DNA from: a virus
DNA: 64,000 nt
Direction: 5' to 3' (one strand)
Virus record (IMG/VR): IMGVR_UViG_3300027816_000055
This document shows positions 8,931 through 51,594 of this stretch, piece by piece. The notes beneath the pieces were generated by a model. It did not search any database. It saw only the letters and a program-made list of their open reading frames with translations, and was not told the DNA's origin. The translations under genes were made by a program, and so were the position numbers. Position 1 is the stretch's first letter. Each line of letters opens with the position of its first letter.

Positions 8931-9320
8931 ATGATTAATATTAATACATATAATTTAATTGGTAATTCAATAGGTGTACAAAATTATGTATATCCAAAAT
9001 TTTATACATTTGTTGTAAATAATTTTGATTATGAAAACGGATTTACATATCGTTATTTTGTTAATAAAATAAATGATAATTTGATAATTGAAGTGTCTGA
9101 AAAAAATTACGATGACATTCAAAAAAATTTGTTTAATAAAGTTGTAGTGATATGGCATTTAATTGGACCTGAGAGAAATGTGTATGTCAATGGAAAGCTT
9201 TATGAACAAGGCATTTACGAAAAAAATTTCAAAGAAATAAGTATCGCAGCACAAACCATGCCAAGTCTAAAAAATTTTATTACAAACTACACGCAATATA
9301 GCAAGCCTAGAAAAGATTGA
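8931..9320 (+). CDS. Hypothetical protein (end of baseplate operon)
   Basis: 129 aa ORF starting 1 nt after the hub stop. Confidence 0.6.
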   Translation: MININTYNLIGNSIGVQNYVYPKFYTFVVNNFDYENGFTYRYFVNKINDNLIIEVSEKNYDDIQKNLFNKVVVIWHLIGPERNVYVNGKLYEQGIYEKNFKEISIAAQTMPSLKNFITNYTQYSKPRKD

Positions 9321-9345
9321 CATGTGGCAGTACCTACTGTATTGT
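9317..9345 (+). promoter_or_regulatory. sigma70-type promoter, leaderless, for the family-A polymerase
   Basis: TTGACA(9317)-17 nt-TATTGT(9340-9345); ATG at 9352. Confidence 0.65.
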
Positions 9346-9351
9346 CGATGA

Positions 9352-10707
9352 ATGATCATAGATAGTGAAAAAGAATATCTAAAATTTCTTGATAATTACA
9401 ATCAACATGATTTAATTGTCAATACATTGGGATGTGATGAACGATATCATCCTGTTGTAGACGAATTGTGCGCCGTGTTTATTAAAAGTATTACCGATGG
9501 TAGAGATTTTACATTGAGTGTAAATCATCCAGATGGTGTATGGAATATTGATAAAGTTCGACTGGCAATCGACTTGAATAAATTAAATACAAATATATGG
9601 ACATTCGATAAGAAGAAAACTTTACATTTTTTGCCCGTCTTGAAATTGAAAGATATTCAAGTTTACGATTACATGGAAACAGGCGAAATTGTTGATGTAA
9701 CTCAGTATCAATCAAATGTTTATGCATTTTATAAGCATATGTATGGCAAATATAGTGATTTGAATTGCGTTATTCCACTATCAGTACATATTGCTAGTTT
9801 CGAAAATTTATCTGATAGCGTACTTGCACGTATTCGTGGAGTAAACACCGATCAAATTTTCAATCGTATTAATACTGAAATTGTTGAAAGTTTTCAGTCT
9901 ATTGAATCAAATGGCTTGAAAATTGATGAAGTGTTGTTTCAACAACACTTTGGGCACAAAGAATGTAAAATCAAAAACGGGTTTGCTCACACTGAGTATA
10001 ATTTGTTTACATCTACGGGTCGGCCAAGTAACCGATTTGGTAACATCAATTATGCTGCTCTCAAAAAAGACGATGGTTGTCGATCTGCATTTGTTAGTCG
10101 TTATGGAAATGACGGATATTTGTTTATGATTGACTATAGTGCATATCATCCACGTTTGATTGCACAATTGGTACGTTACAATCTTCCTGAAGATGTTTAC
10201 AATTATTTGGGTCAGTCGTACTTCAACAAAGACATATTATCTGATGAAGAATTGAAGGCGGCAAAAACAACTACCTTTCAATTATTGTATGGCAATATTC
10301 CAGAAAAATATGTTCACATTCCATTCTTTGTAAAAATCAAAGACTATATTGAACACAGATGGAATCATTTTACAACACACGGATATGTCGAAACGCCAAT
10401 ATATAAGCGTCGTATCACTCCAAACAACATCAGTGAACCAAGTCCAAATAAGCTGTTTAACTATATTTTACAGGCAACCGAAACGGAGTACAACACTGCT
10501 GTATTACGTGATTTGGTAGTGCATCTAAAAAATAGACTAACCAAGCCTATTTTGTATACATATGATTCTGTACTTTTTGATGTCAGCAATCAAGATGGTA
10601 TTGAAATTTTGAGAGAAATTAAAAATATTATGTCGCCTAATAATAATTTTCCTGTAAAATGTTATAAAGGAAACAATTATAATGAAATGCATATAATAAG
10701 TGTATAA
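9352..10707 (+). CDS. Truncated family-A DNA polymerase-like protein (thumb deleted, variant motifs)
   Basis: 'IESNGLKID', 'HTEYNLFTSTGRPS', motif A 'IDYSAYHPR', motif B 'KTTTFQLLYG', motif C 'YTYDSVLFD'. Confidence 0.8.
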   Translation: MIIDSEKEYLKFLDNYNQHDLIVNTLGCDERYHPVVDELCAVFIKSITDGRDFTLSVNHPDGVWNIDKVRLAIDLNKLNTNIWTFDKKKTLHFLPVLKLKDIQVYDYMETGEIVDVTQYQSNVYAFYKHMYGKYSDLNCVIPLSVHIASFENLSDSVLARIRGVNTDQIFNRINTEIVESFQSIESNGLKIDEVLFQQHFGHKECKIKNGFAHTEYNLFTSTGRPSNRFGNINYAALKKDDGCRSAFVSRYGNDGYLFMIDYSAYHPRLIAQLVRYNLPEDVYNYLGQSYFNKDILSDEELKAAKTTTFQLLYGNIPEKYVHIPFFVKIKDYIEHRWNHFTTHGYVETPIYKRRITPNNISEPSPNKLFNYILQATETEYNTAVLRDLVVHLKNRLTKPILYTYDSVLFDVSNQDGIEILREIKNIMSPNNNFPVKCYKGNNYNEMHIISV

Positions 10708-10737: not shown

Positions 10738-11412
10738 ATGAAAGAAATCTATAATAAAGTTTTGGAAGCGGTCGCAATTGATCCCCGTTTAGACACAGGT
10801 ATTTTTGATGTATTAAACAATGATCATTTGTCTGTTTTTCGTGAATATCTAGTAAAAGAAGGTATTTCTGAAGATACCGCTATTGCTGCCAGCAACAAAC
10901 TGGCAGAAGCGGGTAGATTTCCAGAGCGACAAGCTTATAACAAAGATGGTTTGTTGGTAACATTTCCTTCACCAGAACACAAACAACGCGCAATTGCTAG
11001 AGGAACTCATTTTGAGAGAAATCCAAAATCAGCACAAGTAAATATTTTTGGTGCTGAAACACAACCTCAACAACCGGCACAACCAGCACCAGCACAACAA
11101 ACAGTTGCTCCTACAACTATTGCAAAACCTGCTGCACCCACACAAGCACCCGTTAAACAGTCAGTTGCTACAACGCAATCTGCGGATGTTACTCCTGTAA
11201 ATGCCGATAATCGCACACCAGAAGAAAGAGCGGCAGACGCAAATGCGGTGGAAAAAATGTTAAAGACTGAAGGAAAGTCATATACTTTGTCCGAAGCAAT
11301 TGCATTTGGATTCTACTCAAAGAACAATATATGGTATACATCGGATGGTGAAAAAGTTGGTCGCTTGTGGTATGTGGCAGATCGCAAACAACAAATTATA
11401 TTGCCATGTTAA
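10738..11412 (+). CDS. Hypothetical protein with Pro/Gln/Ala/Thr-rich linker
   Basis: 224 aa ORF; low-complexity central segment; ATATTTAT 5 nt upstream. Confidence 0.65.
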   Translation: MKEIYNKVLEAVAIDPRLDTGIFDVLNNDHLSVFREYLVKEGISEDTAIAASNKLAEAGRFPERQAYNKDGLLVTFPSPEHKQRAIARGTHFERNPKSAQVNIFGAETQPQQPAQPAPAQQTVAPTTIAKPAAPTQAPVKQSVATTQSADVTPVNADNRTPEERAADANAVEKMLKTEGKSYTLSEAIAFGFYSKNNIWYTSDGEKVGRLWYVADRKQQIILPC

Positions 11413-11807
11413 CGAGAGAAAAACAACTTTTATGCACATTTACGAATAATGGAGATTATTCGTTATTACTCTCTAAAATTTCAAATTTTTATACAATTTT
11501 AGAACATAAACTTTTTATTTTTGCAAATGTAACAAATTTGAAAGAATATTATCTTACATACAATGTTGACTGTAGAAATACAACGGTCGGCAAATTTCCA
11601 AACACCATTAGTATACATCGCAAGAAAATGTATAATACATTGTATACTTTAAATGGAATGAATAGACTCATTACAGACGAAAACAACGGAGTATTTGATA
11701 AAACATATCAACTCAATTGGGAATTATACAGAAACTCATTGATTTTGACTACGGATATCGGCGTCAAAGTGGTTGGTCTCAAGTTGGTAGACATTGTTAC
11801 GATGTGA
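11406..11807 (+). CDS. Hypothetical protein
   Basis: ATG at 11406 overlapping the upstream stop; 133 aa. Confidence 0.65.
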   Translation: MLTREKQLLCTFTNNGDYSLLLSKISNFYTILEHKLFIFANVTNLKEYYLTYNVDCRNTTVGKFPNTISIHRKKMYNTLYTLNGMNRLITDENNGVFDKTYQLNWELYRNSLILTTDIGVKVVGLKLVDIVTM

Positions 11808-11847: not shown

Positions 11848-11875
11848 TTGTGGTTTTTGAAAATCACTCTATACT
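11848..11875 (+). promoter_or_regulatory. sigma70-type promoter for SSB
   Basis: TTGTGG(11848)-16 nt-TATACT(11870-11875). Confidence 0.45.
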
Positions 11876-11957
11876 TATACGTGTATTAAATGATGCACTG
11901 TCTCTAGTGAGACGATTATTATCTAATACACACTTAACAATTAATAAATTAAAAATT

Positions 11958-12785
11958 ATGGCATTACCATCAAATAAAATTAAGAGTATTCTTAACTCTA
12001 TTCAAAACGTTAACAACAAAACTTCTTCTGTTTGGAAGCCTGAACCCGGAATCCACAACATTCGTATTGTTCCTTACAAGTTCAACCCTGATCAATTCAG
12101 CTTTATTGAGTTGAAGTTCCATTATGGCTTGAAGGTCAAGGATGCAACCGGTAAGATTGTAGAACGTACTTTCTTGTCTCCAGACTCCTTTAATCGTCCC
12201 GATCCTATTGTCGAATTTGCAAATAGATTGCAAAAGACTGGTGATAAGGAAGATTGGAAGCGTGGTCGCAATTTGCTTCCAAAGCAACGTACCTATGCAC
12301 CTATTTTGGTTCGTGGTAAAGAAAATGAAGGAATCAAGTTTTGGGGATTCGGCAAGACTGTGTATGAAACAATCTTGAAGGCATGTGACGAAGAAGTATT
12401 CGGTGATATTAGTGATCCAACAACTGGACATGATATTATTGTTGAATACAAGGAGGCTGGACCTAGTGCTGGTGGAAAGAATTTTCCAACAACAACAATT
12501 ACTGTGAAGGGTAAGGCAACTCCTGCAATCGACGAGCCGCGTAAGCACATCTTGGACTTCCAGAAGAATATTTTGGAATTGTTTCCAGAACCTACTTACG
12601 ACCAGTTGTATAACATCATGACTGAAATGTTGTCTGCTGGTACTACGGAAGAATCTACGGATGATACCGTAGTAGAACCAACTGATGATGCTATTGCAGC
12701 AAATACTTCTCCAACTGCTGCATCGGCACAAAGTAACACTCCAAGTGTAAACGATCAATTCGATAAGTTATTTGGAAAGAAATAA
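11958..12785 (+). CDS. Single-stranded DNA-binding protein, T4 gp32-like
   Basis: 'WKPEPGIHNIRIVPY', 'DPIVEFAN', 'IKFWGFGKTVYETI', 'DISDPTTGHDI', acidic tail ending 'FDKLF'; start reassigned to ATG 11958. Confidence 0.85.
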   Translation: MALPSNKIKSILNSIQNVNNKTSSVWKPEPGIHNIRIVPYKFNPDQFSFIELKFHYGLKVKDATGKIVERTFLSPDSFNRPDPIVEFANRLQKTGDKEDWKRGRNLLPKQRTYAPILVRGKENEGIKFWGFGKTVYETILKACDEEVFGDISDPTTGHDIIVEYKEAGPSAGGKNFPTTTITVKGKATPAIDEPRKHILDFQKNILELFPEPTYDQLYNIMTEMLSAGTTEESTDDTVVEPTDDAIAANTSPTAASAQSNTPSVNDQFDKLFGKK

Positions 12786-12879: not shown

Positions 12880-14094
12880 ATGGCAAAAACAAGTAAAAAC
12901 ACAAACGAATCTGAAGATTCAAAGAAGAAAAGCACAAAATCTGTTAGTAAGAACGATTCTCTATTAGCAAATTTAGCAGCGGAATTAAATAAAAATAACA
13001 AAGAAGGTGGCAAAATTGCATACTTTCTTGATGAGCAAGATGATCCATCTACAATCAGTGATTGGATTAGCACCGGTTCAAGTTTATTGGATCTTGCAAT
13101 TAGTAATCGACCAAATGGTGGATTGCCAGTTGGACGAATGGTCGAATTTAACGGCTTAGAAGGAACCGGAAAAAGTTTGGTGAGCGCACACATTGTAGCG
13201 AATACACAAAAGAAAGGCGGCAAAGCAATCTTTATTGACACAGAAAATGCTGCCGCACCTGACTTTTGGAAGAGCTTGGGTGTAGATTTGTCAAATCTAT
13301 TGTATATTCAACGTGAAACAGTAGAAGATATTTTTACCACAATGGAGCAAGCAATCGCATATATTCGTAAAGATCAACCCGATGCATTGTTAACAATTAT
13401 TGTTGATAGTGTAGCGGCAGCATCTACAAAAGCTGAGATGGAAAGTGATCATGGTAAAGACGGATATGCCACGGGTAAAGCAATTATTATTAGTAAAGCA
13501 CTTCGTAAAATTACTAGTATGATTGGTCGTCAAAAAGTATTGATTGTATTCACAAATCAATTGCGTCAAAATTTAAATGCAAGTCCTTTTGGTGATCAAT
13601 ATACAGTTAGCGGTGGCAAAGGATTGCCTTACCATTGCAGTGTTCGTGTACGACTAAACAACGCAGGTCAATTAAAGTTACCAGACAAGACTGTTATTGG
13701 CAATGAATGTAAAGCTGTGGTTGTAAAGAATCGTATGGGACCACCACAACGTCATGTATTTTTCAATATTTATTTTGATAGCGGTATTGCTGATTATGCA
13801 AGCTGGTTAGAAGTATTGAAAGAAAAAGCTTATGTTAAACCAGCCGGTAGTGCTGGATTAAAATATGTCGCATTGAACGGCGACGAAGTTGTATTTAAAT
13901 CTGAAAGTTTCATCAAGCTTTTGGATGAACGCCCAGAGTTTAAAACCGAAATGTATAATCGTATTTGTGATGCAGTAATCATGCAATATAAAAATGCAAA
14001 TAGCACTATTATTGATTCATCCGCAAATGCTGATGAAGATGCGGAAATGATTGCTGACGAATCCGATATTGATCATTCAGAAGAAAACAATTAA
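12880..14094 (+). CDS. recA: RecA/UvsX recombinase
   Basis: 'WISTGSSLLDLAI', Walker A 'GLEGTGKS', 'FIDTENA', 'IVDSVAA', 'FTNQLR', 'SGGKGLPYHCSVR'. Confidence 0.93.
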   Translation: MAKTSKNTNESEDSKKKSTKSVSKNDSLLANLAAELNKNNKEGGKIAYFLDEQDDPSTISDWISTGSSLLDLAISNRPNGGLPVGRMVEFNGLEGTGKSLVSAHIVANTQKKGGKAIFIDTENAAAPDFWKSLGVDLSNLLYIQRETVEDIFTTMEQAIAYIRKDQPDALLTIIVDSVAAASTKAEMESDHGKDGYATGKAIIISKALRKITSMIGRQKVLIVFTNQLRQNLNASPFGDQYTVSGGKGLPYHCSVRVRLNNAGQLKLPDKTVIGNECKAVVVKNRMGPPQRHVFFNIYFDSGIADYASWLEVLKEKAYVKPAGSAGLKYVALNGDEVVFKSESFIKLLDERPEFKTEMYNRICDAVIMQYKNANSTIIDSSANADEDAEMIADESDIDHSEENN

Positions 14095-14098
14095 TTAT

Positions 14099-15157
14099 AT
14101 GGACCCAATCACATCAGAAGATCGTAAAAAATTATTTTCTATGTTTCAAAACATGGAATTAAACACCAAGCCTGTTGAACGTATGTTGAACAGTGAAGTT
14201 CTTTTGGTGGATGGGTTGAATTGTTTCTTTCGTTCATTTATGGCTGTGCCAAGTCTAAATGACAATGGATTACACGTTGGAGGCATAGCTGGCTTTTTAC
14301 AAAGTATTGGTTATGCCTCCAAACTTTTAAATCCAACTCGTATTGTCATTGTTTTTGATGGCAGCGGTGGCAGTATGAAGCGCAGAAAAATATTTCCAGA
14401 ATATAAGGAGCGCAGAAAAACTAATTTAAAGTATAATAGAAGTTATGAGGAATTGACGACCGATGAACAAGAAGATAGAAATATTCAATCACAATTATTG
14501 CGACTGATTGGATATCTTGATGCATTGCCTGTGACTGTGATGAGTGTTGATCATGTAGAAGCAGATGACACCATTGCATACGCGGCAAATGAATATTTTA
14601 AAGATAGCAATAAAGTATATATCATGAGCACAGACAAGGATTATTTACAATTGGTCAATGAAAAGATCAATGTATGGAGTCCAACCAAAAAGAAACTTTA
14701 TGGATGTGCAGAAATTTTATTGGAGTATGGAATTAGTTGTGAAAACTTTCTAAATTACAGAATACTTAGTGGTGATGAAAGTGACAATATTGATGGAATA
14801 CAAGGCAGTGGATTAAAAACTGTATTAAAGTGTTTTCCACAATTTGCAGAGCATACACAAATGTCATTGGAGCAAATATATACACATTGCGAACAGAACA
14901 AAAAGAAATATAAACTATATTCTTCTATTTTAGAAAACAAGAGCATTGTTGAAAGAAACTATGCACTGATGCAATTGAAAGATACACAATTGCAATCATT
15001 TACACAATTACGTGTTAATGAGATACTTAATAAACCTATTGGAATATTAAATAGAATGCGTTTTAGCAAATTGATTGCAGAAGATAGAATGTGGAACAAT
15101 ATAAAAAATCATCATACTTGGTTATCGGATACATTCGGTCGATTGATCGTCTCCTAA
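14099..15157 (+). CDS. 5'-3' exonuclease / RNase H (T4 rnh, FEN-like)
   Basis: 'LLVDGLN', 'VFDG', 'YKERR', 'VEADDTIA', 'STDKDYLQL', 'LSGDESDNIDGIQGSG'. Confidence 0.9.
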   Translation: MDPITSEDRKKLFSMFQNMELNTKPVERMLNSEVLLVDGLNCFFRSFMAVPSLNDNGLHVGGIAGFLQSIGYASKLLNPTRIVIVFDGSGGSMKRRKIFPEYKERRKTNLKYNRSYEELTTDEQEDRNIQSQLLRLIGYLDALPVTVMSVDHVEADDTIAYAANEYFKDSNKVYIMSTDKDYLQLVNEKINVWSPTKKKLYGCAEILLEYGISCENFLNYRILSGDESDNIDGIQGSGLKTVLKCFPQFAEHTQMSLEQIYTHCEQNKKKYKLYSSILENKSIVERNYALMQLKDTQLQSFTQLRVNEILNKPIGILNRMRFSKLIAEDRMWNNIKNHHTWLSDTFGRLIVS

Positions 15158-15249: not shown

Positions 15250-16638
15250 ATGCAAGTAATCGATAACCTAAAAAAGTTCGGACCTGAATTTCAACTTAAG
15301 TGCATCAGCGGCTTAATTAGTGATAAACCATTCATGGAGCGTATCAACGACATTGTTGATCCTCTTAGTTTTGAAAGTGATGCCAATCAGTGGATTGTTA
15401 AGACTGCCCTCAAATATTTTTTGAAGTTCAAGGAACTGCCTACATTGACTGCGTTTCAAGTTGAACTTGATGCGGTTGAACAGGAAGAATTAAAGAATCA
15501 AGTTGTAACACAGTTGCGGTTGGTTTTCAACAAAATCACTGATAGTGATTTGATGTATGTCAAAGAGCAATTTTTAGAGTTCTGTCGAAATCAGACTTTG
15601 AAGAATGCAATCATGGAAAGTGTTGATCATTTGCAGCGCGGTCATTACGAAAAGATTAAAAGCGTTGTTGATCATGCCATGAAAGCTGGTATGGAGCGCA
15701 ATATCGGTCATGATTATATGACAGATGTTGACAAGCGAATGAGTGTGATGTCTCGAAATACTATTTCTACCAAATGGCAAGTTGTGGATCAAATCATGGA
15801 TGGTGGTCTAGCTGCTGGTGAAATGGGTATTGTAACCGCATGCGCTGGATCTGGTAAGAGTTGGGTCTTGGCTAAACTTGGTGCCGAGGCTATGAGACAG
15901 GGTAAAAATGTTTTGCATTTTACTCTTGAATTGAATGAAAATTATGTTGGTTTGCGTTATGACGCGTGTTTCACCGGTATTGATTTTCAAAACATTCGCA
16001 ACAATATCGGTATTGTAAAGGATCGTATTGCCAATGTTCCCGGCAAATTGATCATTAAGTATTTTCCAATTAAAACTGTTAGTGCTCACAATTTGAAAGC
16101 ACATGCAGAGAGATTGGCAATGTTGGGTACAAAGATTGATATGATGGTAGTCGATTATGCAGATATTCTACGTCCATTTCAATCTGATCGTAATGCAAAC
16201 AGCTATAGCGAAGCAGGTGGTATTTATGAAGAACTACGTGCTGTTGCGGGAGAATTGCAAATTCCTATTTGGACTGCTTCACAAAGCAATCGTGCCGGTA
16301 TGGAAGAAGACGTATTAACCGCAATGAATATTAGCGATAGCTATCGTAAAATCATGACGGCAGATTTCGTATTATCTGTAAGTCGCAAGACTCAGGATAA
16401 GCAAGCCAATACTGCTCGTTTTCATATCATTAAAAATCGTTTCGGTCCAGATGGATTGACTTTTCCTGCTCGTATGAACGCTGGTTGTGGAGATATTCAA
16501 TTGTTTGACGAAGGTAGCCGCGAAGGTGCTGCATTGATTAATGAAATGAATCAAAGCGAAAATATTGTGAAGAAAATGATGAAAAGTAAGTGGGACGAAC
16601 ACATGGGTCGCAATCGTGAAGACGACGGAGACAACTAA
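15250..16638 (+). CDS. dnaB: Replicative DNA helicase (DnaB / T4 gp41-like)
   Basis: Walker A 'ACAGSGKS', 'FTLELNE', 'VVDYADIL', 'WTASQSNR', 'KNRFGPDG'. Confidence 0.9.
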   Translation: MQVIDNLKKFGPEFQLKCISGLISDKPFMERINDIVDPLSFESDANQWIVKTALKYFLKFKELPTLTAFQVELDAVEQEELKNQVVTQLRLVFNKITDSDLMYVKEQFLEFCRNQTLKNAIMESVDHLQRGHYEKIKSVVDHAMKAGMERNIGHDYMTDVDKRMSVMSRNTISTKWQVVDQIMDGGLAAGEMGIVTACAGSGKSWVLAKLGAEAMRQGKNVLHFTLELNENYVGLRYDACFTGIDFQNIRNNIGIVKDRIANVPGKLIIKYFPIKTVSAHNLKAHAERLAMLGTKIDMMVVDYADILRPFQSDRNANSYSEAGGIYEELRAVAGELQIPIWTASQSNRAGMEEDVLTAMNISDSYRKIMTADFVLSVSRKTQDKQANTARFHIIKNRFGPDGLTFPARMNAGCGDIQLFDEGSREGAALINEMNQSENIVKKMMKSKWDEHMGRNREDDGDN

Positions 16639-20987: not shown

Positions 20988-21012
20988 CGTTTCTATAAAA
21001 GCGACCTATGGT
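20984..21012 (+). promoter_or_regulatory. sigma70-type promoter, leaderless, for uvsE
   Basis: TTGACG(20984)-17 nt-TATGGT(21007-21012); ATG at 21020. Confidence 0.65.
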
Positions 21013-21019
21013 ATGGGTC

Positions 21020-21946
21020 ATGAAACGATACGGACTTTGCTGCATCAGCCTTACCCTACAGGATCAAGGATTCAAATCCTCCACCATGACCAAAACTCGC
21101 TTTTTGCAACTAAACCGCAAACAAGCAGAAAAAATCGTGGCAGAACGTACTCTCAACAATGTTATGGTTGCACGTAAAACCATTGAGTTTTGTGCTTCAA
21201 AAAACTGGAATTATCGCATCAGTAGTGGAATGATGCCACTGGAAACCTTGCCAGATGTAAATCTGTTGATTGAAAATACACATAATTTCAACGGCATTCA
21301 AAACGAATTCAAACTTGCAGCATCTGCAATTAAACAACATAATGTTCGTTGCAGTACACATCCAGATCAATTTGTTGTACCTGCATCTGCCAATCCAGCG
21401 GTTGCTGCAAAAAGTGTAATTGAACTCAATATGCACGGCAAAATGATGGATATGTTTGGTCTTAGCCAAGACTATAATAGTCCAATCAATATTCACATGA
21501 ATTGTTTCAAAGGCGGCGATCTTAAAGACACTGCCAAACGATTCATTGACGTATATAATCAATTGCAACACAATGTCAAATCTCGTCTTGTCCTTGAAAA
21601 CGAAGACAAACCCAACAGTTGGAATGTAGAGCAATTGTATGAACATATTTACAGTGCCGTAAAAATTCCTATTACTTATGATAATTTGCATCATCGTTGC
21701 AACCCCGGAAAACTAACTGCTACTGAAGCTTACAAACTTGCATATAGCACTTGGCCTACTGGAACAATTCCATTGTTTCATTTTAGCGACAGTATTCCAA
21801 ATGGAGATAATCCTAGAGCACATGCAGATTATGCAAATACACTACCGGACGAATATAATAACACAGATGTTCTAGATTTGGAACTGGAATTCAAAGCCAA
21901 AGATTTGGCTATCATGGAGTTTCAGAAGAAATATCCTTGGTATTAA
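21020..21946 (+). CDS. uvsE: UV-damage endonuclease (UVDE)
   Basis: 'YGLCCIS', 'YRISSGMMP', 'STHPDQF', 'INIH', 'LVLENED', 'TYDNLHH', 'FHFSDS', 'RAHADY', 'ELEFKAKDLA'. Confidence 0.92.
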   Translation: MKRYGLCCISLTLQDQGFKSSTMTKTRFLQLNRKQAEKIVAERTLNNVMVARKTIEFCASKNWNYRISSGMMPLETLPDVNLLIENTHNFNGIQNEFKLAASAIKQHNVRCSTHPDQFVVPASANPAVAAKSVIELNMHGKMMDMFGLSQDYNSPINIHMNCFKGGDLKDTAKRFIDVYNQLQHNVKSRLVLENEDKPNSWNVEQLYEHIYSAVKIPITYDNLHHRCNPGKLTATEAYKLAYSTWPTGTIPLFHFSDSIPNGDNPRAHADYANTLPDEYNNTDVLDLELEFKAKDLAIMEFQKKYPWY

Positions 21947-22393: not shown

Positions 22394-22729
22394 ATGACAA
22401 TAATAATTGTCATGGCATTTTATTTTATGGAAATAATTGTTACATTAATTGTTGGTATATTTTTGTTTATTTATATCAAACGCGATATAAAAAAGATCAA
22501 CGCTCGTATTGACACTGTTGAAAAATTGATTCCTGATGCAGCGGAATATAAAAAGTATAAAGACGATGTAAAAACTTTATACCAGAACCAAACTCTGCTA
22601 TTGTCTTTGGTGAACGCTGTAAGAGTTAGAATCAATAATTTTTATGCCAAAAAGCTCAACGAACCAAGACTCAAATCCGCTGGATTTGATTCAACCAAAG
22701 AATTTGGTGAAACCCAAGACGGTGTTTGA
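22394..22729 (+). CDS. Hypothetical membrane-anchored protein
   Basis: N-terminal hydrophobic helix followed by a coiled-coil-like region. Confidence 0.55.
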   Translation: MTIIIVMAFYFMEIIVTLIVGIFLFIYIKRDIKKINARIDTVEKLIPDAAEYKKYKDDVKTLYQNQTLLLSLVNAVRVRINNFYAKKLNEPRLKSAGFDSTKEFGETQDGV

Positions 22730-23162
22730 TCATATCAAACACATCCGTGAATCCAAGGCGCCCGACTATTATCAATCGCTAACTGAAGCTGATCAAAAAA
22801 CATTTAACAAATATGTTATTTTGATGGGTTTAAGTATGGATCAAACGGCAATTGAAGGAGTTAGTTATATATCTAAATATTTAGATATATTGCCTCCAAA
22901 TGCATTTTATAAAGTATGCTGCGATGTTACTCCAAAATCGACAAGATTTTGCAAATGGATAAAATCATCAAAGCCAAAATATAGTAAAAAGCTCATTGAG
23001 ATTATCGCATCTTACTATAAAATCAGTAAAAGTGATGCATATGATTATTGCACTTCATTCTTTCGTGATGAAACACAATTGACTAATTTAATCAATTTGT
23101 GTAGTAGTGTTGGATTTAGCGAAACTCAAATTGAAAAAATGTTAGAAGGAAAAGATGAATAA
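22644..23162 (+). CDS. Clamp-loader small subunit, T4 gp62-like (putative)
   Basis: 'FNKYVILMGLSMD', 'LPPNAFY', 'RFCKWIK', 'IASYYKISKSDAYDY' pattern. Confidence 0.55.
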   Translation: MPKSSTNQDSNPLDLIQPKNLVKPKTVFDHIKHIRESKAPDYYQSLTEADQKTFNKYVILMGLSMDQTAIEGVSYISKYLDILPPNAFYKVCCDVTPKSTRFCKWIKSSKPKYSKKLIEIIASYYKISKSDAYDYCTSFFRDETQLTNLINLCSSVGFSETQIEKMLEGKDE

Positions 23163-40561: not shown

Positions 40562-41863
40562 TTATTTATTCAATTTAGGTAATTTAAGTTTTGGTAATAC
40601 AATTTTCTTTTCAATTGCAAATTCTGGAACATATTTGTCTAAATATGCATGTAAAATTTTATCAGTTGCTTCCATACTAAATCTTTCCATATTTTCAATG
40701 CGTAGCTTTTCCGCATTCTCTTTGATAGATGGCGCCGGACTGTAAAATATTGTCTTGAATCGTTCTTCAGCAAGACCGTAAGCAACAGAGAACCAACTAC
40801 TTTCTTTAATAAGCCATTGATTAGAAGATGCTGGATCAACCTGCTTTATGGTTCCTTGCAATAACTGTGCATACTTCGGGTTCAAGAAATCAAGATGACC
40901 ACTCCAATTACTTGCCAATATTGGTTTGCCGCTCAAACTTGCAAGTAATAATGGATGTCCATATCCTTCACCGTGTGTAAAACTAACATGTGCTTTAACT
41001 TTTTCATGATTAAACAATGCATTCATTTCTACATCATTAAGTTCACCATGCAAAAGATATACATTTGGTAAATCACCACCAACTTCTTTTTTAATAGCGG
41101 CAATACGTGCCAAACATGCATCTCTATCAGCGATAGAAAAATTAACACCGCTTGTTTTTAAGATCAAACAAGGACGTTCACCTTTTCTGTCTTTGAAAGT
41201 ATTACAGAAGGACTTGATTAAATTACCAATGTCTTTACGATCATTATATAATCCATTTGAGCTTGTCCATTGACCAACAAACAAAAATGCAAAAGTTTCA
41301 GGAATATTGCTTAATGCGGCTTCTACGGTTGCAACTTTTTCATCTGTTTTCTTAAATACTTTGATGTCTGCACCCCAAGGGGTAACTTCCATAGGCTTAT
41401 TTACTACTAATGGTTCATTACGACCATCTGGCAAAGTCTTGACAAAGTTTGCTTTTTGAAATACTTCTTTTGAAAATGTACTAGTTACAAAGTTAACATT
41501 CATTTTATTTAATCCTTCAATCCACTCACCCGGTGGGATCGTTGTTTCAATACCGGCAGTCATACCAATATTGTATTTAGCAGGAGTTTGAAATTCATTT
41601 GGAATTGTCATTTGAATGAATACTTCTGGTTGTTTTTGTAAAGGGGATCGTAAAATACGATTTCCTAATTCTATTGCTTCATGATCATTCGGATCAATAT
41701 CCGCAACGTTTAGTTTACGCGGAGTTCCACCCCATGGAGTCGGCACAACAAGTAGATCAAATTTGTTATATCTTAACAAACTTTTACCAACTGCCATTGC
41801 CCATTCACCGTAACCACTGCGAGTAAAAATAGGACTTTGAAATACACAAACTGGTTTGCTCAT
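40562..41863 (-). CDS. GT-B glycosyltransferase (GT4-like)
   Basis: 'SGYG', 'FLFVGQW', 'VSFTHGEGYGHPLLLA', 'NWSGHLDF'. Confidence 0.8.
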   Translation of the reverse strand: MSKPVCVFQSPIFTRSGYGEWAMAVGKSLLRYNKFDLLVVPTPWGGTPRKLNVADIDPNDHEAIELGNRILRSPLQKQPEVFIQMTIPNEFQTPAKYNIGMTAGIETTIPPGEWIEGLNKMNVNFVTSTFSKEVFQKANFVKTLPDGRNEPLVVNKPMEVTPWGADIKVFKKTDEKVATVEAALSNIPETFAFLFVGQWTSSNGLYNDRKDIGNLIKSFCNTFKDRKGERPCLILKTSGVNFSIADRDACLARIAAIKKEVGGDLPNVYLLHGELNDVEMNALFNHEKVKAHVSFTHGEGYGHPLLLASLSGKPILASNWSGHLDFLNPKYAQLLQGTIKQVDPASSNQWLIKESSWFSVAYGLAEERFKTIFYSPAPSIKENAEKLRIENMERFSMEATDKILHAYLDKYVPEFAIEKKIVLPKLKLPKLNK

Positions 41864-42573
41864 AGATTATTTTCTCTTTCTTTCATTAAATCACTATACT
41901 TCTTTTCTGGAGTATACACAGGATTTTTTTTGTAATTTTTAATCATATCAACCAATGTTTCATCGGGAACAATTGGAGTAGATGTTACATCAGTGCTGCC
42001 AAAACCACCTTCGCCACGTTGTGTTTTATCTAGTGCATCCACCAAATAAAACTCAGCATGTTCAACTTTGGTAATTTTCAATTGACAAATTTTGTCACCT
42101 TTCTTGTAGATCTTATCAAGATTAGGTTTTCCTGCAACATATTGATACAAAGGCGCACCATCATTTGCAAGTTTAGTGTTAATCAGATAATCTTCTGGTT
42201 GCCAAATATATTTGAAACGTACAAGAATTTCGCCACGATAATCCGCATCAATTAATCCAATACCATTTGCAAGTACAAGATTGTATTTGCTAACACTACT
42301 ACGAGGCATAGCCAATACATCGTAATCAATATTTAATGGACTTGATGTACCTCCAGTCCATACGTTATCTTTTTGAACAGCAATTCGAAGATTAGTTTTG
42401 TACTGAATGTAATCTATACTTTCATATACATTTTTTGATTCTCCGTGTAGTTTACCTACTATTTCAGGATCACTAGTTGCAACAATATCATAACCAGTAG
42501 ATCGTTCGGTTGCCGCGTCTGGCAACGCGGCAACATTATTATATGTTTCGTTTTTTAATACTTCAATTTTCAT
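41860..42573 (-). CDS. dut: Trimeric dUTPase
   Basis: Five motifs: 'STGYDI', 'PRSS', 'GLIDADYRGEI', 'KICQL', 'RGEGGFGST'. Confidence 0.9.
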   Translation of the reverse strand: MKIEVLKNETYNNVAALPDAATERSTGYDIVATSDPEIVGKLHGESKNVYESIDYIQYKTNLRIAVQKDNVWTGGTSSPLNIDYDVLAMPRSSVSKYNLVLANGIGLIDADYRGEILVRFKYIWQPEDYLINTKLANDGAPLYQYVAGKPNLDKIYKKGDKICQLKITKVEHAEFYLVDALDKTQRGEGGFGSTDVTSTPIVPDETLVDMIKNYKKNPVYTPEKKYSDLMKERENNL

Positions 42574-46559: not shown

Positions 46560-49091
46560 ATGTATCAAAATATATTCGTAGATAAAAAAACAAACACTGT
46601 TCATCTATGGGATGATGAAGGTGGTTATCAAAATATACCTTTTCAAAACTATGCATTTCGTAAGCGTCCCGGTGGACGTTATCGTAGTATTTATGGTGAC
46701 GAACTAGAACGAGTCACATTTTTTAATCCTAGAGATCCATCACTTTTTGGCTCGGATATTCCAATTGAAACCAAAATTTTAATTGACTTGTACGAGTCCA
46801 GTGATGATGTATCCAAAGGACATCGTATTGGTTGCATCGATATTGAAACGGACAGCGAAGGTGGGTTTCCAACCGTTGAAAAGGGCGATAAAGAAATCAC
46901 TGCAATTGCATTATATGATTATGTAGGCGGCAAATATATTGCATTTCTACTTGATAAAGACAATCGGGTAAAAACCAATTCTATTGATGGTATAGAAATT
47001 ATTTCTAGTGACAACGAATATAATCTATTGAGCAAGTTCCTAAACAAATGGAATGAACTCGGATTTACCATTGTTACAGGTTGGAATATTGATGGATTTG
47101 ATATGCCTTATCTGTATAATCGTATTACGAATGTAATGGGAAAAGAGCATTCAAAGCGATTGAGTCCCATTGATATTTGTTATATCAACGATTGGAGCAA
47201 ACGGTTGGTGATAGCGGGTATTAGTTGTTTGGATTATCTTGAATTGTTCAAGAAATATTCAGACAAGCGTGAACCTTCGTATGCACTTGATCCAATTGGC
47301 CGCAAATTTGTCGGTATTGGTAAGGTGGAATTTGAAGGAAGTCTTGATCATTTGTATAAGACTGATTTGGAAAAGTATATTCGTTACAATATCAACGACG
47401 TAAAAATTGTTGTTGAGATTGATAAACTCAAACAATATATTGAATTGGCCCGTAAAATTTGTCACACAGGTCATGTTCCATATGAAAACTTTGCATGGAG
47501 CAGTCGATACCTAGAAGGTGCAATATTGACATATTTGCGCCGTAATGGTGGTCTTATTGCTCCAAATAAACCAATGGAGGGCAAGGAAGAATATGAGCAG
47601 CGTTTGGAAGCTAACGAAGAAGGATTTGAAGGTGCATATGTGAAAGATCCAATTCCGGGTCGGTACGAATATGTATTTGACTTGGACTTGACCAGTATGT
47701 ATCCAAAAATCATGATTAGTCTCAATATTAGTCCAGAAACGAAAGTTGGTAAGATTGATAGTTGGGATGTAGAAGCGTATCTTTCCGGCAAACTTGAAAA
47801 AGTATTTATTGCGGGCAATCCATATACTATGGATGAATTTCATAAATTGTTGACTCAGCAAAACTTGAGTGTTTCGAGCAACGGTTGCTTGTACAAATTG
47901 GATAAGAAAGGTGTTATTCCATCGATTCTATCCAAGTGGTTTGATGAACGTGTTGAGATGCGTAAATTGGAAAAGAAGTATGCTAAAGAAAACAACAAAG
48001 AAATGTATCAATTTTATAATCAACGTCAGTTGGTACAAAAGATTATGTTGAACAGTGCTTATGGTGTGCTTGGATTGCCAATTTTTAGATTTTACGATAA
48101 AGACAATGCAGAAGCTGTTACGAAGAGTGGTGTAACCATTATTCAAACGGCAGGTAAAGCAATCAATCAATATTATCAGGATATTCTAAAAGATGACGGT
48201 GATTATGTCATCTACACTGATACAGACAGTTGCTTTGCAAGCGCATTGCCTATTATTGAACGAACCATGCCAGAAATTGATGTTAACAACGAAGAGTTAA
48301 TGATCAAAACAACATTGAAAATTTGTTCAGAGGTACAGACGTTTGTTAATAAAATCTTTGATGTAATGGCACAACGAGCCTTTCATTTGAAACATCATGA
48401 ATTTGAAGCAAAACAAGAAGTTATTGCCAAGAGTTCATTTTGGCTGGCTAAGAAACGTTATACACAGTTCATTATTAATAAAAATGGTGTTGAATGTGAT
48501 GAACTAGAAATCAAAGGTATCGACGTAGTTCGTACAAGTTTTCCAATTCGATTCAGAAAATTTATGAATGACTTTTTGATTGACATTCTTAAAAAGACTG
48601 ACATGAAGATCATCAATCAGAAAATTTATGAGTTTGAATTGACATTGAACGACGTGCCGATCATTGAACTTGCAAAAAACACAAGTATCAAGTTTGTAAG
48701 TATGGATAAAGGTAAAAATTATGATCCTAATAATCGTGTACCTTTTAATTTTATATTGGGTACTCCTGCTCAAGTAAAAGCTGGTCTTGCTTACAATGAT
48801 TTGCTTGAGTTTTGGAAACTTGACACTAAATATCCAAAACTGATGCATGGACAAAAAATCAAGTGGGTGTATTTAATTGAGAATGACTATGGTATTGATG
48901 CATTGGCTATGAAAGCTGACGGCACCGATCCTAAAGAAATTCTTGATTTTATTGAGAAATACATTGATCGTAAATTGATGTATCAAAAAGAACTCAAAAG
49001 CAAATTAGAAGACTTTTACAACGTATTGAAGTGGAATTATCCAGATCAATACAGCATGAACACAATGAATATTATATTTGATTGTGAGTAA
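46560..49091 (+). CDS. Family-B DNA polymerase (T4 gp43-like)
   Basis: ExoI 'IDIET', ExoII 'GWNIDGFDMPYL', ExoIII 'YNINDV', 'DLTSMYP', 'KIMLNSAYG', 'YTDTDS'. Confidence 0.95.
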   Translation: MYQNIFVDKKTNTVHLWDDEGGYQNIPFQNYAFRKRPGGRYRSIYGDELERVTFFNPRDPSLFGSDIPIETKILIDLYESSDDVSKGHRIGCIDIETDSEGGFPTVEKGDKEITAIALYDYVGGKYIAFLLDKDNRVKTNSIDGIEIISSDNEYNLLSKFLNKWNELGFTIVTGWNIDGFDMPYLYNRITNVMGKEHSKRLSPIDICYINDWSKRLVIAGISCLDYLELFKKYSDKREPSYALDPIGRKFVGIGKVEFEGSLDHLYKTDLEKYIRYNINDVKIVVEIDKLKQYIELARKICHTGHVPYENFAWSSRYLEGAILTYLRRNGGLIAPNKPMEGKEEYEQRLEANEEGFEGAYVKDPIPGRYEYVFDLDLTSMYPKIMISLNISPETKVGKIDSWDVEAYLSGKLEKVFIAGNPYTMDEFHKLLTQQNLSVSSNGCLYKLDKKGVIPSILSKWFDERVEMRKLEKKYAKENNKEMYQFYNQRQLVQKIMLNSAYGVLGLPIFRFYDKDNAEAVTKSGVTIIQTAGKAINQYYQDILKDDGDYVIYTDTDSCFASALPIIERTMPEIDVNNEELMIKTTLKICSEVQTFVNKIFDVMAQRAFHLKHHEFEAKQEVIAKSSFWLAKKRYTQFIINKNGVECDELEIKGIDVVRTSFPIRFRKFMNDFLIDILKKTDMKIINQKIYEFELTLNDVPIIELAKNTSIKFVSMDKGKNYDPNNRVPFNFILGTPAQVKAGLAYNDLLEFWKLDTKYPKLMHGQKIKWVYLIENDYGIDALAMKADGTDPKEILDFIEKYIDRKLMYQKELKSKLEDFYNVLKWNYPDQYSMNTMNIIFDCE

Positions 49092-49160: not shown

Positions 49161-49931
49161 ATGATTAAATCTACATTAGAATCGATGATTAAGAAGTATT
49201 ATCTTGCAAATTTTATGGAAACTTCAATTTGGAAGGTACTGAATGATAAAAAGCAGCTACGAATGGCAGCGTGTACTCCAAATTATGTACTGAGCGTAGT
49301 AGTTGAACTAAATAATTTTGAAGAAATTCCAACAACCGAGTTTGCAGTAAATGATACCACCAAGCTATTGAAGATGTTGAATGCACTGGATGCGGATATC
49401 AAATTGTCCGTCAAACAAGACAACAATGGCAAAATTTACAATATTGTAGTAAATTCTGGTAATATTGAGATGGAATATGTAACCGCTGATATTAATGTAT
49501 TGCGAGCAAATGAAGTGGTAAAGACCATCAAGAAGGTCAATGAACCTCCGTTTGAAGTAGAAATCGTGCTTGATAGAGACTTTATTGACACTTATATTGC
49601 TAGTACAACTGCATTGTCCGATAGCGAGAATGTAGTATTTCAAATGAACAAGGATAATAAACTTGAAATGGTATTCGGCCATATTCAAGGTGCAAACAAG
49701 TCATTAAACACTTCAAAAATTAAATATTTGCCTAAAACTGCAAATGGGAAAGATACACTTCCATCGTCACTTGGTTTTAGTTCTGAGTATTTGAAGCAAA
49801 TTTTGGTAGCAAATAAAGATGCTACCGATACAATTCTCAAATTGGGTGTTACTAAGCCTATGGCAACTGCTCAATTTACAAGCGGCGACATCATTGCAAC
49901 CTATCACGTAACCGGTCTTACTGTTAAATAA
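49161..49931 (+). CDS. DNA polymerase sliding clamp (gp45-like)
   Basis: 256 aa between PolB and clamp loader; 'FAVNDTTKLLKML', 'FSSEYLKQILVAN'. Confidence 0.7.
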   Translation: MIKSTLESMIKKYYLANFMETSIWKVLNDKKQLRMAACTPNYVLSVVVELNNFEEIPTTEFAVNDTTKLLKMLNALDADIKLSVKQDNNGKIYNIVVNSGNIEMEYVTADINVLRANEVVKTIKKVNEPPFEVEIVLDRDFIDTYIASTTALSDSENVVFQMNKDNKLEMVFGHIQGANKSLNTSKIKYLPKTANGKDTLPSSLGFSSEYLKQILVANKDATDTILKLGVTKPMATAQFTSGDIIATYHVTGLTVK

Positions 49932-49934
49932 TAT

Positions 49935-50861
49935 ATGACTACACAAGAACATCATACTATCTGGCCTGAAAAATATCGTCCTTCATCTTTGGATGAATAT
50001 GTAAGTAATCCAAATTTGATTGCTACAATTCGTAAATTTATTGATTCAAAGAACATCCCACATCTGTTATTTCATGGCACTGCGGGAACCGGCAAGACAA
50101 CCTTGGCAAAGCTGATTATCAAGAATGTTGAGTGCGATGCAATGTATATTAACGCATCGGACGAAAACAATGTTGATAACGTTCGTACAAAAATTAAAGA
50201 TTTTGCCTCAAATGTTGGATTTTCTGAATTGAAGATCATTATTTTGGACGAAGCAGATTATCTCACACACAATTCACAGGCGGCATTACGTAACATTATG
50301 GAGACGTATGCATTGACTACACGATTCATTCTAACCTGTAACTATATTGAAAAGATTAGTGAGCCATTGTATTCACGTTGTCAGTGTTTTGAAATTAGTC
50401 CTCTGCAAAAGAAAGATGTGGCAATCCATCTAAAAAATGTGTTGCATGCCGAAAACATACAGCACACAATGGAAGATTTGGGTTATATTGTTAACACATA
50501 TTATCCTGATATTCGTAAAGTGTTAAATTTTGCACAACAGAGCGTGTTGAATGGTGAGATTAAAATCGCAGAATTAAATTCGTCTTCATACAATACTAAA
50601 AATCAGCTTGTTGAGATTTTGAAGTCGGAATCCAACGCTGCCACCGGATTCAATAAAATTAGACAGTTGATTGCAGATAGTGGTATTCGTCACTATGAAG
50701 AATTGTATCAAACTTTATTTGATCGTGTTGATGATTATGCACCAAAACAGCAATCGGCAGCGATTTTGGTTGTGGCAGAGTATTTGTATCAAAGCAGCAT
50801 GATTGTGAATAAAGAAATTGCCTTCATGGCGTGTATTGCAAAACTTCTAGAAATACTATGA
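49935..50861 (+). CDS. Clamp-loader large subunit (gp44/RFC-like AAA+)
   Basis: 'WPEKYRP', 'GTAGTGKTT', 'INASDE', 'LDEADYL', 'SRC', 'PDIRK'. Confidence 0.92.
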   Translation: MTTQEHHTIWPEKYRPSSLDEYVSNPNLIATIRKFIDSKNIPHLLFHGTAGTGKTTLAKLIIKNVECDAMYINASDENNVDNVRTKIKDFASNVGFSELKIIILDEADYLTHNSQAALRNIMETYALTTRFILTCNYIEKISEPLYSRCQCFEISPLQKKDVAIHLKNVLHAENIQHTMEDLGYIVNTYYPDIRKVLNFAQQSVLNGEIKIAELNSSSYNTKNQLVEILKSESNAATGFNKIRQLIADSGIRHYEELYQTLFDRVDDYAPKQQSAAILVVAEYLYQSSMIVNKEIAFMACIAKLLEIL

Positions 50862-51058
50862 AAATGGATAAAAAACTAACTGAGATAGTATCGTATTTTT
50901 CAAAATACGCATGGTATGATAATGCATACGCTACCACATATAAAAATGAATATGTAATCATCGTAAAAAAATATCCTTATAGCGACGATCACTTATTCAG
51001 TGAATACGAAAAAAATAAAAAAGTTAGAATTAGAACACACGTATTGGGAGGAAAATGA
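50858..51058 (+). CDS. Small hypothetical protein
   Basis: ATGA overlap with the clamp-loader stop. Confidence 0.5.
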   Translation: MKMDKKLTEIVSYFSKYAWYDNAYATTYKNEYVIIVKKYPYSDDHLFSEYEKNKKVRIRTHVLGGK

Positions 51059-51594
51059 ATATTTTAAATAAAACCAAGGTTTATCTTGCAGGCAATCTTG
51101 AAAATGCAAATTCAAGCACTAATACATGGAGAGATTATGTTAAAAATGAATTAAATTCGTTAAATATAACATTTCTTTCTCCGTTAGAGCGAATGTTTAC
51201 AGATGATATGCCTGAAGATGAAAGTAATCAGCGCACAGTAAAAATGCTACGTGCAAATGGGGAATTTGATGTCTTGCATGAGCATATGAAGAAAATAATT
51301 CGTAAAGATTTGCGATTGGTTGATGTATCGGATTTTTTCATCTTTAATTTTGATATAAAAAATCCTACATATGGTACAATGCATGAACTTGTATTGGCAA
51401 GTCAGCAACGCAAACCTGTTTTTATTAGTGTAGGTGATAAACGCCAGTGTCCACTATGGATTATGGGATTATTTAACCACAAGTACATTTACAACAATGT
51501 AGAAGAAATAGTTGATGTATTGAAAAGAATTGATAGTGGTGAAATTGAAATTAATAACAGTCGTTGGAGATTATTGAAGCCTGAATTTCGATAA
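51055..51594 (+). CDS. Nucleoside 2-deoxyribosyltransferase-like / nucleotide N-glycosidase
   Basis: 'KVYLAG', 'DLRLVDVSD', 'GTMHEL..A....KPV'. Confidence 0.7.
   Translation: MNILNKTKVYLAGNLENANSSTNTWRDYVKNELNSLNITFLSPLERMFTDDMPEDESNQRTVKMLRANGEFDVLHEHMKKIIRKDLRLVDVSDFFIFNFDIKNPTYGTMHELVLASQQRKPVFISVGDKRQCPLWIMGLFNHKYIYNNVEEIVDVLKRIDSGEIEINNSRWRLLKPEFR

Follow-up and report, generated by a model that had tools for sequence, protein, structure and literature searches.

A thumbless family-A DNA polymerase of the divPolA1 type, encoded beside a family-B polymerase in a 64-kb window of viral DNA

The 64,000-nucleotide stretch of viral DNA recorded in IMG/VR as IMGVR_UViG_3300027816_000055 (here called the window, meaning the whole stretch that was analysed) carries on its plus strand an open reading frame (ORF), 9352-10707, that is open throughout and encodes a protein of 451 amino acids (aa). 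This protein is a new member of divPolA1, a family of divergent family-A DNA polymerases (PolA) that is real, strongly conserved and already described by computer analysis. Yutin et al. (2024, Virol J 21:200, PMC11348598) found divPolA1 in Flavobacterium phage vB_FspM_immuto (immuto) and 13 related phages of 155-190 kb; the main text of that paper describes an enzyme whose thumb is truncated, whose exonuclease domain is inactivated and whose palm is conserved, which is extra to a regular DNA polymerase of family A, B or C and has replication genes downstream in a conserved arrangement. The window protein and its parts, with the evidence for each in brackets, are as follows.

9352-10707, plus strand: divPolA1-type family-A DNA polymerase, 451 aa (PF00476, phrog_17, homology to immuto, AlphaFold2 model, ratio of non-synonymous to synonymous substitution rates, dN/dS)
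9352-9846, plus strand: N-terminal domain (roughly the first 165 residues), folded like the 3'-5' exonuclease domain of Pol I, with no conserved DxE/D/YxxxD catalytic set (model alignment)
9928-9987, plus strand: thumb stump, aa 193-212, an 8-residue helix and a loop replacing about 92 residues of Klenow helices H-I (phmmer, hhalign, AlphaFold2 model)
10015-10029, plus strand: TGRPS motif, whose R224 corresponds to Klenow R668, a minor-groove contact at the primer terminus (R224 invariant in 118 close and 135 distant members)
10132-10155, plus strand: motif A, DYSAYHPR, with catalytic D261 and with His266 at the steric gate, Klenow E710 (conservation counts)
10252-10293, plus strand: motif B (O helix), with L301 for R754, and with K305, F309, Y313 and G314 (phmmer, hhalign)
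10555-10569, plus strand: motif C, YTYDS, with catalytic D405, Y404 for H881 and S406 for E883 (conservation counts)

Membership of family A is seen in a match to PF00476 (DNA_pol_A) of 46.8 bits against a curated cut-off of 34.3 (E 2.6e-12), in which aa 206-434 align to profile positions 101-366 of 381, and in a match to PHROG 17 'DNA polymerase' (phrog_17; E 1.5e-16). The residues that are canonical in PolA motifs (D..E in motif A, R...K...F/Y...YG in motif B and HDE in motif C) are kept only in part; D261, K305, F309, Y313, G314 and D405 are present, and the equivalents of E710, R754, H881 and E883 are altered to His, Leu, Tyr and Ser. Judged by these motifs, the 451-aa protein is a divergent PF00476 member rather than a canonical Pol I-type enzyme. 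An initial annotation, made from the letters of this DNA, had proposed a thumbless family-A polymerase with a changed steric-gate residue, and every statement that it made about the sequence of 9352-10707, from the ORF itself to the motif positions and residue substitutions, was borne out.

The thumb is essentially deleted, as had been claimed. The motif IESNGLKID occupies aa 184-192 and HTEYNLFTSTGRPS begins at aa 213, with 20 residues between them. In a phmmer search against PDB sequences, aa 168-202, which include IESNGLKID, pair with Klenow chain residues 200-234 (IERNGVKID), and aa 208 onward pairs with Klenow chain residue 327 onward, leaving about 92 Klenow residues, the thumb helices, with no counterpart in the 451-aa polymerase and about 20 residues in their place. 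An hhalign comparison of a profile of 84 family members with the E. coli Klenow sequence (taken from NC_000913.3) gave the identical register at 96.6% probability. Across 138 family members, the thumb segment is 5-29 residues long, and a thumb is found in 0/138. The fingers are trimmed as well; the catalytic Asp of motif A is separated from that of motif C by 144 residues of palm and fingers, versus 177 in Klenow. A thumb contributed by an adjacent split gene was considered and rejected: the best 150 representatives of the profile search described below are 272-479 aa long and include no longer, thumb-bearing form, and the ORFs neighbouring the polymerase gene have no PolA match.

The same architecture appears in an AlphaFold2 model built from an 84-sequence alignment (mean predicted local distance difference test score 93.2, with no segment below 50; predicted template modelling score 0.89). 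Between helix 168-187 and the strands that begin at about residue 208, the model has just a 3-residue strand and one 8-residue helix (193-200). Searched against PDB with Foldseek, it finds Klenow (1kfd) as its top match (E 5.6e-19; template modelling score 0.77, query-normalised), with other Pol I enzymes, Pol theta, Pol nu and apicoplast polymerases among the further matches. VIA-align, run on Foldseek's candidates, gives Z of 26.9 to 25.2 against the large fragments of M. smegmatis, Bacillus and Taq Pol I over 405-417 of the 451 residues, with model residues 1-448 spanning, for example, Bst 302-876. Among the matches listed, all 50 from VIA-align and all from Foldseek are DNA polymerases. 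Structure prediction, a check that the initial annotation had proposed, shows a superposition on Pol I large fragments. Residue 1 of the model aligns to Bst residue 302 and M. smegmatis residue 323, in the vestigial exonuclease domain of the large fragments, and because the model aligns to that domain from its first residue, the N-terminal 165 residues have a Pol I exonuclease-like fold. No DxE is conserved at the Exo I position, where a pattern-based mapping, as distinct from a residue-level superposition, places N24 and L26 in this protein and variable residues across the family.

The register to Klenow pairs D261 with D705, H266 with E710, L301 with R754, K305 with K758, F309 with F762, Y313 with Y766, R224 with R668, N370 with N845, Q374 with Q849 and Y404-D405-S406 with H881-D882-E883; the equivalent of Klenow H734 is Tyr283 in the close clade. 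This register, common to phmmer and hhalign, upholds the earlier placement of His266 at the steric gate, the YDS reading of motif C and the loss of the motif-B Arg. Conservation follows the same lines. Among 118 close members, D261, H266, P267, K305, T308, Y313, G314, Q374, D405 and the R-P-S (224-226) of TGRPS are invariant. Among 135 distant representatives, which are 28-46% identical to the window polymerase, D261, D405, Y404, R224 and E377 are kept in 135/135, K305 and Q374 in 134/135 each, and H266 in 133/135; the two catalytic Asps, said from the outset to remain, are therefore present in 118/118 close and 135/135 distant members. Taken over the full range of 28-87% identity, D261, D405, K305, R224, Q374, Y313 and F309 are invariant or nearly so. 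Position 406 is S, A or G in the distant representatives, and position 301, the R754 equivalent, is I, L or V in the close clade and mostly Tyr, otherwise aliphatic, in distant members, with Arg in 4/135. H33, E377 and H266 are among the conserved residues of the polymerase. Glu377, within aa 375-379 (10474-10488), belongs to the helix that follows Q374, at a position occupied by Ala in Klenow, and might compensate for the lost motif-C Glu. Finally, dN/dS of the polymerase is 0.08 against a 96%-identical relative, with similar values for neighbouring genes, and this value and the invariance of D261 and D405 exclude an absence of purifying selection.

How does this protein relate to the published family, and how large is that family? 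By tblastn, the window polymerase matches the 'DNA polymerase family A' of immuto isolates 3-5A, 13-6C and 2-6A at 30.8% identity over 93% coverage (E 1e-55), and it also matches Microcystis phage Mel-JY01 and a 484-kb uncultured phage. Motif A is DFDGYH in immuto and DYDAFH in Mel-JY01, and both have YDA as motif C and K..F..YG in motif B. The traits by which divPolA1 was described are found together in the window: homology to immuto, a truncated thumb, an exonuclease fold with its acidic residues replaced, a palm with the catalytic residues kept, a second, regular DNA polymerase and replication genes downstream. A word-indexed search returned more than 100 close relatives of 443-470 aa and 37-87% identity. 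An exhaustive profile search over 1.84 billion cluster representatives, with clusters at 50% identity, returned 706 clusters with an E of 1e-30 or below, 1042 with 1e-10 or below and only 1815 with 0.001 or below. The thumbless, His-gated clade that the initial annotation had suggested looking for exists, and PolB and primase genes occur in relatives. In IMG/VR, at least 592 contigs encode a divPolA1 relative. The main text of PMC11348598 makes no mention of the near-invariant steric-gate His, the promoter or the neighbouring gene orf133, both of which are described below. A 2023 reclassification of PolA into 19 clusters mentions 'broken' thumbs and calls the steric gate 'position A2', and its passages on these subjects name no thumbless clade. 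Apparently unreported, then, are the near-invariant gate His, the lack of a thumb in every member, the size of the family, the conserved promoter, from which a leaderless mRNA is predicted, and an ever-present neighbour of 130 aa.

The polymerase gene is preceded by a promoter.

9317-9345, plus strand: sigma-70-like promoter, TTGACA-17 nt-TATTGT (consensus scan, 10/12 matches)

TTGACA lies at 9317-9322 and, after the 17-nt spacer, TATTGT at 9340-9345, ending 6 nt before the divPolA1 ATG. The consensus scan found 23 sites in 2.3 kb versus 13.6 expected, and a single match in AT-rich DNA means little. The arrangement TTGAC[AT]-17 nt-TAnnnT-6 to 8 nt-ATG recurs upstream of the orthologue in about 20 relatives with 45-96% protein identity (L004, L006-L008, L010, L011, L018, L022, L033, L035, L038, L042, L049, L050, L052, L054, L055, L060, L071), and the spacer sequence drifts. 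The proposal that the gene has its own promoter is thus supported by a geometry that is kept across relatives. Given that transcription usually starts some 7 nt downstream of the -10 box, the first nucleotide of the transcript is predicted to be the A of the ATG or one adjoining it. A Shine-Dalgarno site would not fit, and the divPolA1 mRNA is therefore probably leaderless. A second candidate of like design precedes a minus-strand ORF at 41860-42573, with TTGACA at 42610 and a -10 box that ends 8 nt before the ATG.

Downstream of the polymerase lie the following genes.

10738-11412, plus strand: orf224, two small domains and a Pro/Ala/Gln-rich linker (conserved in the close clade; no family)
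11406-11807, plus strand: orf133, a small conserved protein with motifs QLLCTF, HRKK and YTLNxMN (downstream of divPolA1 in every lineage examined)
11850-12785, plus strand: gp32-like single-strand DNA-binding protein, SSB (PF08804, E 5e-11; phrog_1192)
12880-14094, plus strand: UvsX/RecA-type recombinase (PF00154, E 5e-51; phrog_97, E 2.8e-71)
14051-15157, plus strand: stand-alone 5'-3' exonuclease of FEN / Pol I N-terminal type (PF02739, E 2e-31; PF01367, E 1.4e-9)
15250-16638, plus strand: DnaB/gp41-type replicative helicase (phrog_19, E 1.9e-74; PF03796)

The true start of the SSB is probably an internal ATG near 11955. In the window, the full order runs from an 874-aa virion protein through orf129, divPolA1, orf224, orf133, SSB, UvsX, the 5'-3' exonuclease and DnaB to ribonucleotide reductase. 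The order of this module is kept in 80 IMG/VR loci, in immuto, in Mel-JY01 and in 2/3 distant metagenomic loci, one of which keeps it with a polymerase that is only 28% identical; the third distant locus, L162, keeps orf133 alone of the usual downstream genes. There, in L162:673-3287, a CYTH (triphosphate tunnel) gene stands upstream of divPolA1 and an overlapping gene for a calcineurin-like phosphoesterase downstream, with orf133 further on. In many relatives an additional ORF, of 535-603 aa and no assigned family, lies between divPolA1 and orf224/orf133, and most of the IMG/VR relatives have an equivalent gap of 1.2-1.9 kb there; two examples, L022:11398-13209 and L159:10335-11942, have no similarity to each other, and the extra ORF is absent from the window and its closest relatives (L004-L008). 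At L159:16917-19338, in a distant relative, the ribonucleotide reductase gene is apparently interrupted by an intein, with weak Intein_splicing matches on two pieces of the reductase.

Of the two small proteins, orf133 is the constant one. It is 40% identical to immuto gene 2 (E 7e-28), and its profile finds matches at E 1e-25 to 1e-36 in immuto, Mel-JY01, L159, L161 and L162; outside the window it lies at L001:1346-1801, L002:13212-13601, L159:11990-12382, L161:3911-4306 and L162:5447-5740. divPolA1 is upstream of it in 54/54 informative orf133 loci, and in the distant lineages orf133 is 35-47% identical to the window protein versus 28-31% for the polymerase. Searches with orf133 found no match in Pfam, PHROG or PDB sequences, and Foldseek against PDB returned nothing at E<=0.001; a wide VIA-align search reached a best Z of 6.2 with ACT/ferredoxin-like domains over residues 1-70 only, a common arrangement and so uninformative. 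The predicted alpha/beta fold does not fit the T4 proteins UvsY and gp59, which are all-helical. A predicted complex of divPolA1 with orf133 scored 0.00, which is uninformative on binding either way, and because synteny extends over the entire module, the fact that the two genes are neighbours is not enough to show a specific partnership. As for orf224, tblastn locates it in about 60 IMG/VR loci, flanked by divPolA1 and orf133; it has no Pfam match and no BLASTP similarity to immuto genes 2 and 3.

The regular replication genes lie elsewhere in the window, as does a gene for an ultraviolet (UV)-damage endonuclease.

46560-49091, plus strand: family-B (gp43-like) DNA polymerase (PolB), exonuclease and polymerase motifs intact (phrog_262, E 4e-173; PF00136, PF03104)
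49161-49931, plus strand: probable sliding clamp (location and a 0.93 Atlas feature match to gp45/PCNA clusters only)
49935-50861, plus strand: clamp-loader large subunit (phrog_168, E 2.7e-74)
22644-23162: gp62-like clamp-loader small subunit (adjoins a deoxynucleoside monophosphate kinase)
21008-21946: UvdE-type UV-damage endonuclease (PF03851, E 1e-39)

The PolB motifs are IDIET (Exo I), DLTSMYP, KIMLNSAYG and YTDTDS (A, B and C) and KKRY, and because the probable clamp and the clamp loader directly follow it, PolB is the obvious replicase of the window. The complete family-B replisome that the initial annotation had described alongside the thumbless enzyme is thus largely present, with PolB, clamp loader, gp62-like subunit, SSB, a DnaB/gp41-like helicase and UvsX, and with a clamp that is only probable. 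The ORF that follows the clamp loader, at 51055-51594, is a nucleoside 2-deoxyribosyltransferase and not gp62; the gp62-like subunit is 27 kb away. The regular polymerase is PolB in the window, in the close relatives G001-G003 and in Mel-JY01, and a 778-aa PolA in immuto; PolC (PF07733) was not found in G001, immuto or Mel-JY01. Since the regular polymerase is A or B by lineage, divPolA1 is independent of the type of main polymerase. Primase was checked in relatives, the virus's own DNA being the 64-kb window. The complete G001 (295,831 bp) encodes a 317-aa DnaG/gp61-type primase (phrog_47, E 6e-40; DNAG_N), and Toprim-containing ORFs of 314 and 333 aa in immuto and Mel-JY01, with weaker matches, are primase candidates; Toprim_4 (PF13662) gave nothing in three relatives, and Toprim_2 and DNAG_N did give matches. 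UvdE is present in G001-G003 and absent from the complete genomes of immuto and Mel-JY01, both of which have divPolA1.

What might a thumbless polymerase do beside such a replicase? From the family membership, architecture, conservation and gene context set out above, we infer catalytic activity, low processivity and a cellular role, and on balance we favour an accessory DNA polymerase that lacks proofreading, is probably distributive, stands first in a replication and recombination operon and works beside a PolB holoenzyme. divPolA1 is a minimal family-A polymerase, in which the 3'-5' exonuclease-like domain is catalytically dead, the palm keeps both metal-binding Asps, the fingers are trimmed and the thumb is a stump, and its conserved residues suggest that it most likely still performs DNA-templated nucleotide addition. 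It would have no proofreading. Because the duplex-gripping thumb is absent, its hold on DNA is expected to be weak and its synthesis distributive and suited to short patches. Its own conserved promoter would drive transcription, probably of a leaderless mRNA, with divPolA1 as the first gene of an operon that continues with orf224, orf133, SSB, UvsX, exonuclease and DnaB, and bulk replication would fall to PolB, helped by the clamp and its loader. divPolA1 would most likely carry out accessory synthesis at the fork or at recombination intermediates, with a Pol I-like role split between divPolA1 and the separate 5'-3' exonuclease; candidate jobs are the filling of Okazaki-fragment gaps and the extension of D-loops made by UvsX. 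A Pol I-like gap-filling or recombination-primed role is, by analogy, the leading guess. The initial annotation had likewise inferred a non-replicase that is probably distributive, which seems reasonable and matches the divPolA1 proposal of 2024 as given in the main text of PMC11348598.

Several considerations weigh against this proposal. The nucleotide pocket differs at several points from that of Klenow (His for E710, a hydrophobic residue for R754, Tyr for H881, Ser for E883 and, in the close clade, Tyr283 for H734), which makes efficient use of deoxynucleoside triphosphates an assumption. The authors of PMC11348598, in its main text, read the conserved context as a role in replication proper. 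The gap-filling role is suggested solely by gene neighbourhood and the Pol I analogy, no partner that would replace the thumb was identified, and a full-text literature search under the name divPolA1 returned only the Yutin paper and its preprint, with no measured activity.

Could divPolA1 instead be a derivative of PolA that uses ribonucleotides, primase-like or RNA-polymerase-like? The lost gate Glu would admit ribonucleoside triphosphates (rNTPs) and the lost thumb would favour de novo starts, as in the thumbless PrimPol. E710 has become an almost invariant His, the triphosphate-contacting R754 is lost, and motif C is Y-D-S, which resembles the H-D-S of T7 RNA polymerase, versus the H-D-E of DNA polymerases. 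The idea of an RNA polymerase was raised in the main text of PMC11348598, but for divPolA2. His266, however, has roughly the bulk of a Glu and might still act as a gate at the 2' position; F309, Y313 and the minor-groove readers R224 and Q374 (the equivalents of F762, Y766, R668 and Q849) are kept as in DNA polymerases; and these residues, together with structural matches that are all DNA polymerases among those listed, favour a DNA polymerase. Primer synthesis, one of the roles first suggested for this enzyme, is moreover not needed where a DnaG/gp61-type primase is encoded, as in G001, or where weaker Toprim matches provide candidates, as in immuto and Mel-JY01, and we consider the ribonucleotide explanation improbable. 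A slightly better case, though still an unlikely one, can be made for divPolA1 as the real fork polymerase, or one of two, working with the operon's DnaB and gp32-like SSB and gaining processivity through a partner. divPolA1 is the sole polymerase that stays with the SSB/RecA/FEN/DnaB module, the regular polymerase being swapped between families A and B, and the primase-helicase-SSB set is constant among the genomes examined. Yet the PolB of the window, with its motifs intact, adjoins the probable clamp and the clamp loader in a standard T4-type holoenzyme; a lack of proofreading would be unusual for the replicase of a genome near 300 kb (a size inferred from the 296-kb G001); the thumb is absent and the fingers are trimmed; and at the same loci divPolA1 evolves faster, with 45-50% identity versus 73-76% for DnaB and 53-77% for UvsX.

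The remaining explanations turn on accessory genes and on the altered pocket. A polymerase for UV-lesion bypass or repair, acting with UvdE and the 5'-3' exonuclease, would suit the presence of UvdE in the window and three close relatives, the likeness of a compact, exonuclease-minus PolA to Pol theta and Pol nu (both among the structural matches), and the origin of relatives in aquatic metagenomes, like the known hosts Flavobacterium and Microcystis. We give it little credence; the complete immuto and Mel-JY01 genomes keep divPolA1 without UvdE, so that the gap filling with this endonuclease suggested at first is not a family-wide link, UvdE lies about 10 kb off and outside the conserved block, and no bypass ability can be read from sequence. 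The initial annotation stands in its structural reading and is not supported in its ideas of primer synthesis, of UvdE as a partner and of altered sugar or base selectivity. It is very unlikely that divPolA1 is adapted to non-canonical nucleotides, with modified bases or sugars, supplied through nucleotide and glycan genes of the phage. In favour of this stand the altered pocket and the nucleoside 2-deoxyribosyltransferase, deoxynucleoside monophosphate kinase and many glycosyltransferases that the window encodes, but these accessory genes lie outside the conserved divPolA1 block, and the pocket changes are family-wide across phages of differing gene content. Least credible of all is a catalytically inert protein whose part in the replisome is that of a structural or DNA-binding subunit. 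The loss of R754, of E883 and, in the close clade, of H734 could cripple catalysis, but both Asps and the equivalents of K758, Y766, F762, R668 and Q849 are invariant over 28-87% identity, which is hard to explain without catalysis. We also entertain, as a speculative and doubtful proposal, that divPolA1 is a PolA lineage altered in its substrate or its mode of action, as judged from the near-invariant gate His, a motif-C D-S like that of T7 RNA polymerase, the absence of the gamma-phosphate Arg and the absence of a thumb. Synthesis might tolerate rNTPs or initiate primers, or else a fork polymerase might obtain its grip on DNA in trans from orf133. If true, either would be a design for a family-A replisome that has not been described before.

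For the window itself, the result mostly amounts to a correct annotation, and the finding is real and already published. Its wider interest lies in the occurrence of divPolA1 across a very extensive group of large aquatic phages, which makes the family a natural experiment on the need for a thumb, a steric-gate Glu and an O-helix Arg. The family offers clear handles for biochemistry: a near-universal His, no thumb in any member, a conserved promoter with a predicted leaderless mRNA and an orf133 that is conserved more strongly than the polymerase.

Several known systems help to place divPolA1. In a Klenow mutant with its thumb tip deleted, and in minimal repair polymerases of viruses, for example Pol X of African swine fever virus, loss of the duplex-gripping element reportedly goes together with a loose hold on DNA, low processivity and synthesis in short patches. 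The former is engineered, the latter belongs to family X, and neither is related to divPolA1, so these analogies guide inference and do not count as evidence. Thumbless polymerases are rare in family A, and the other case found in the main text of PMC11348598 is divPolA2 of the barbaviruses, which is likewise a second divergent PolA with no canonical thumb beside a regular PolB; it is set apart, in the paper's description, by an unrelated N-terminal globular domain, a variable neighbourhood and structural matches to RNA polymerases, none of which is seen for the window polymerase, whose listed structural matches are all DNA polymerases. With the Pol I large fragment (Klenow, Bst, Taq, M. smegmatis Pol1), the window polymerase shares the fold of the exonuclease-like domain, palm and fingers, the catalytic Asp pair and the equivalents of K758, F762, Y766, R668, N845 and Q849, and the stand-alone 5'-3' exonuclease of its operon recalls the N-terminal domain of Pol I. 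Unlike the large fragment, it lacks about 92 thumb residues, about 33 residues between motifs A and C (palm/fingers) and the exonuclease carboxylates, and the similarity to Pol I is so low that the family profile draws only 1815 proteins of 1.84 billion at E<=0.001. The closest comparison is with the divPolA1 of immuto itself. At 31% identity, the window protein belongs to a different and much larger clade, with DYSAYHP versus DFDGYHL in motif A, YDS versus YDA in motif C and, in the close clade, orf224 added between the polymerase and orf133; the complete relative of 295,831 bp, set against the 155-190 kb given in the paper for its 14 phages, would widen the published range of divPolA1 genomes. 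Across that distance the two agree in a length of about 440-450 aa, a truncated thumb, a dead exonuclease-like domain, a palm that is kept and a regular polymerase alongside, and in both genomes SSB, RecA/UvsX, 5'-3' exonuclease and DnaB follow downstream in identical order.

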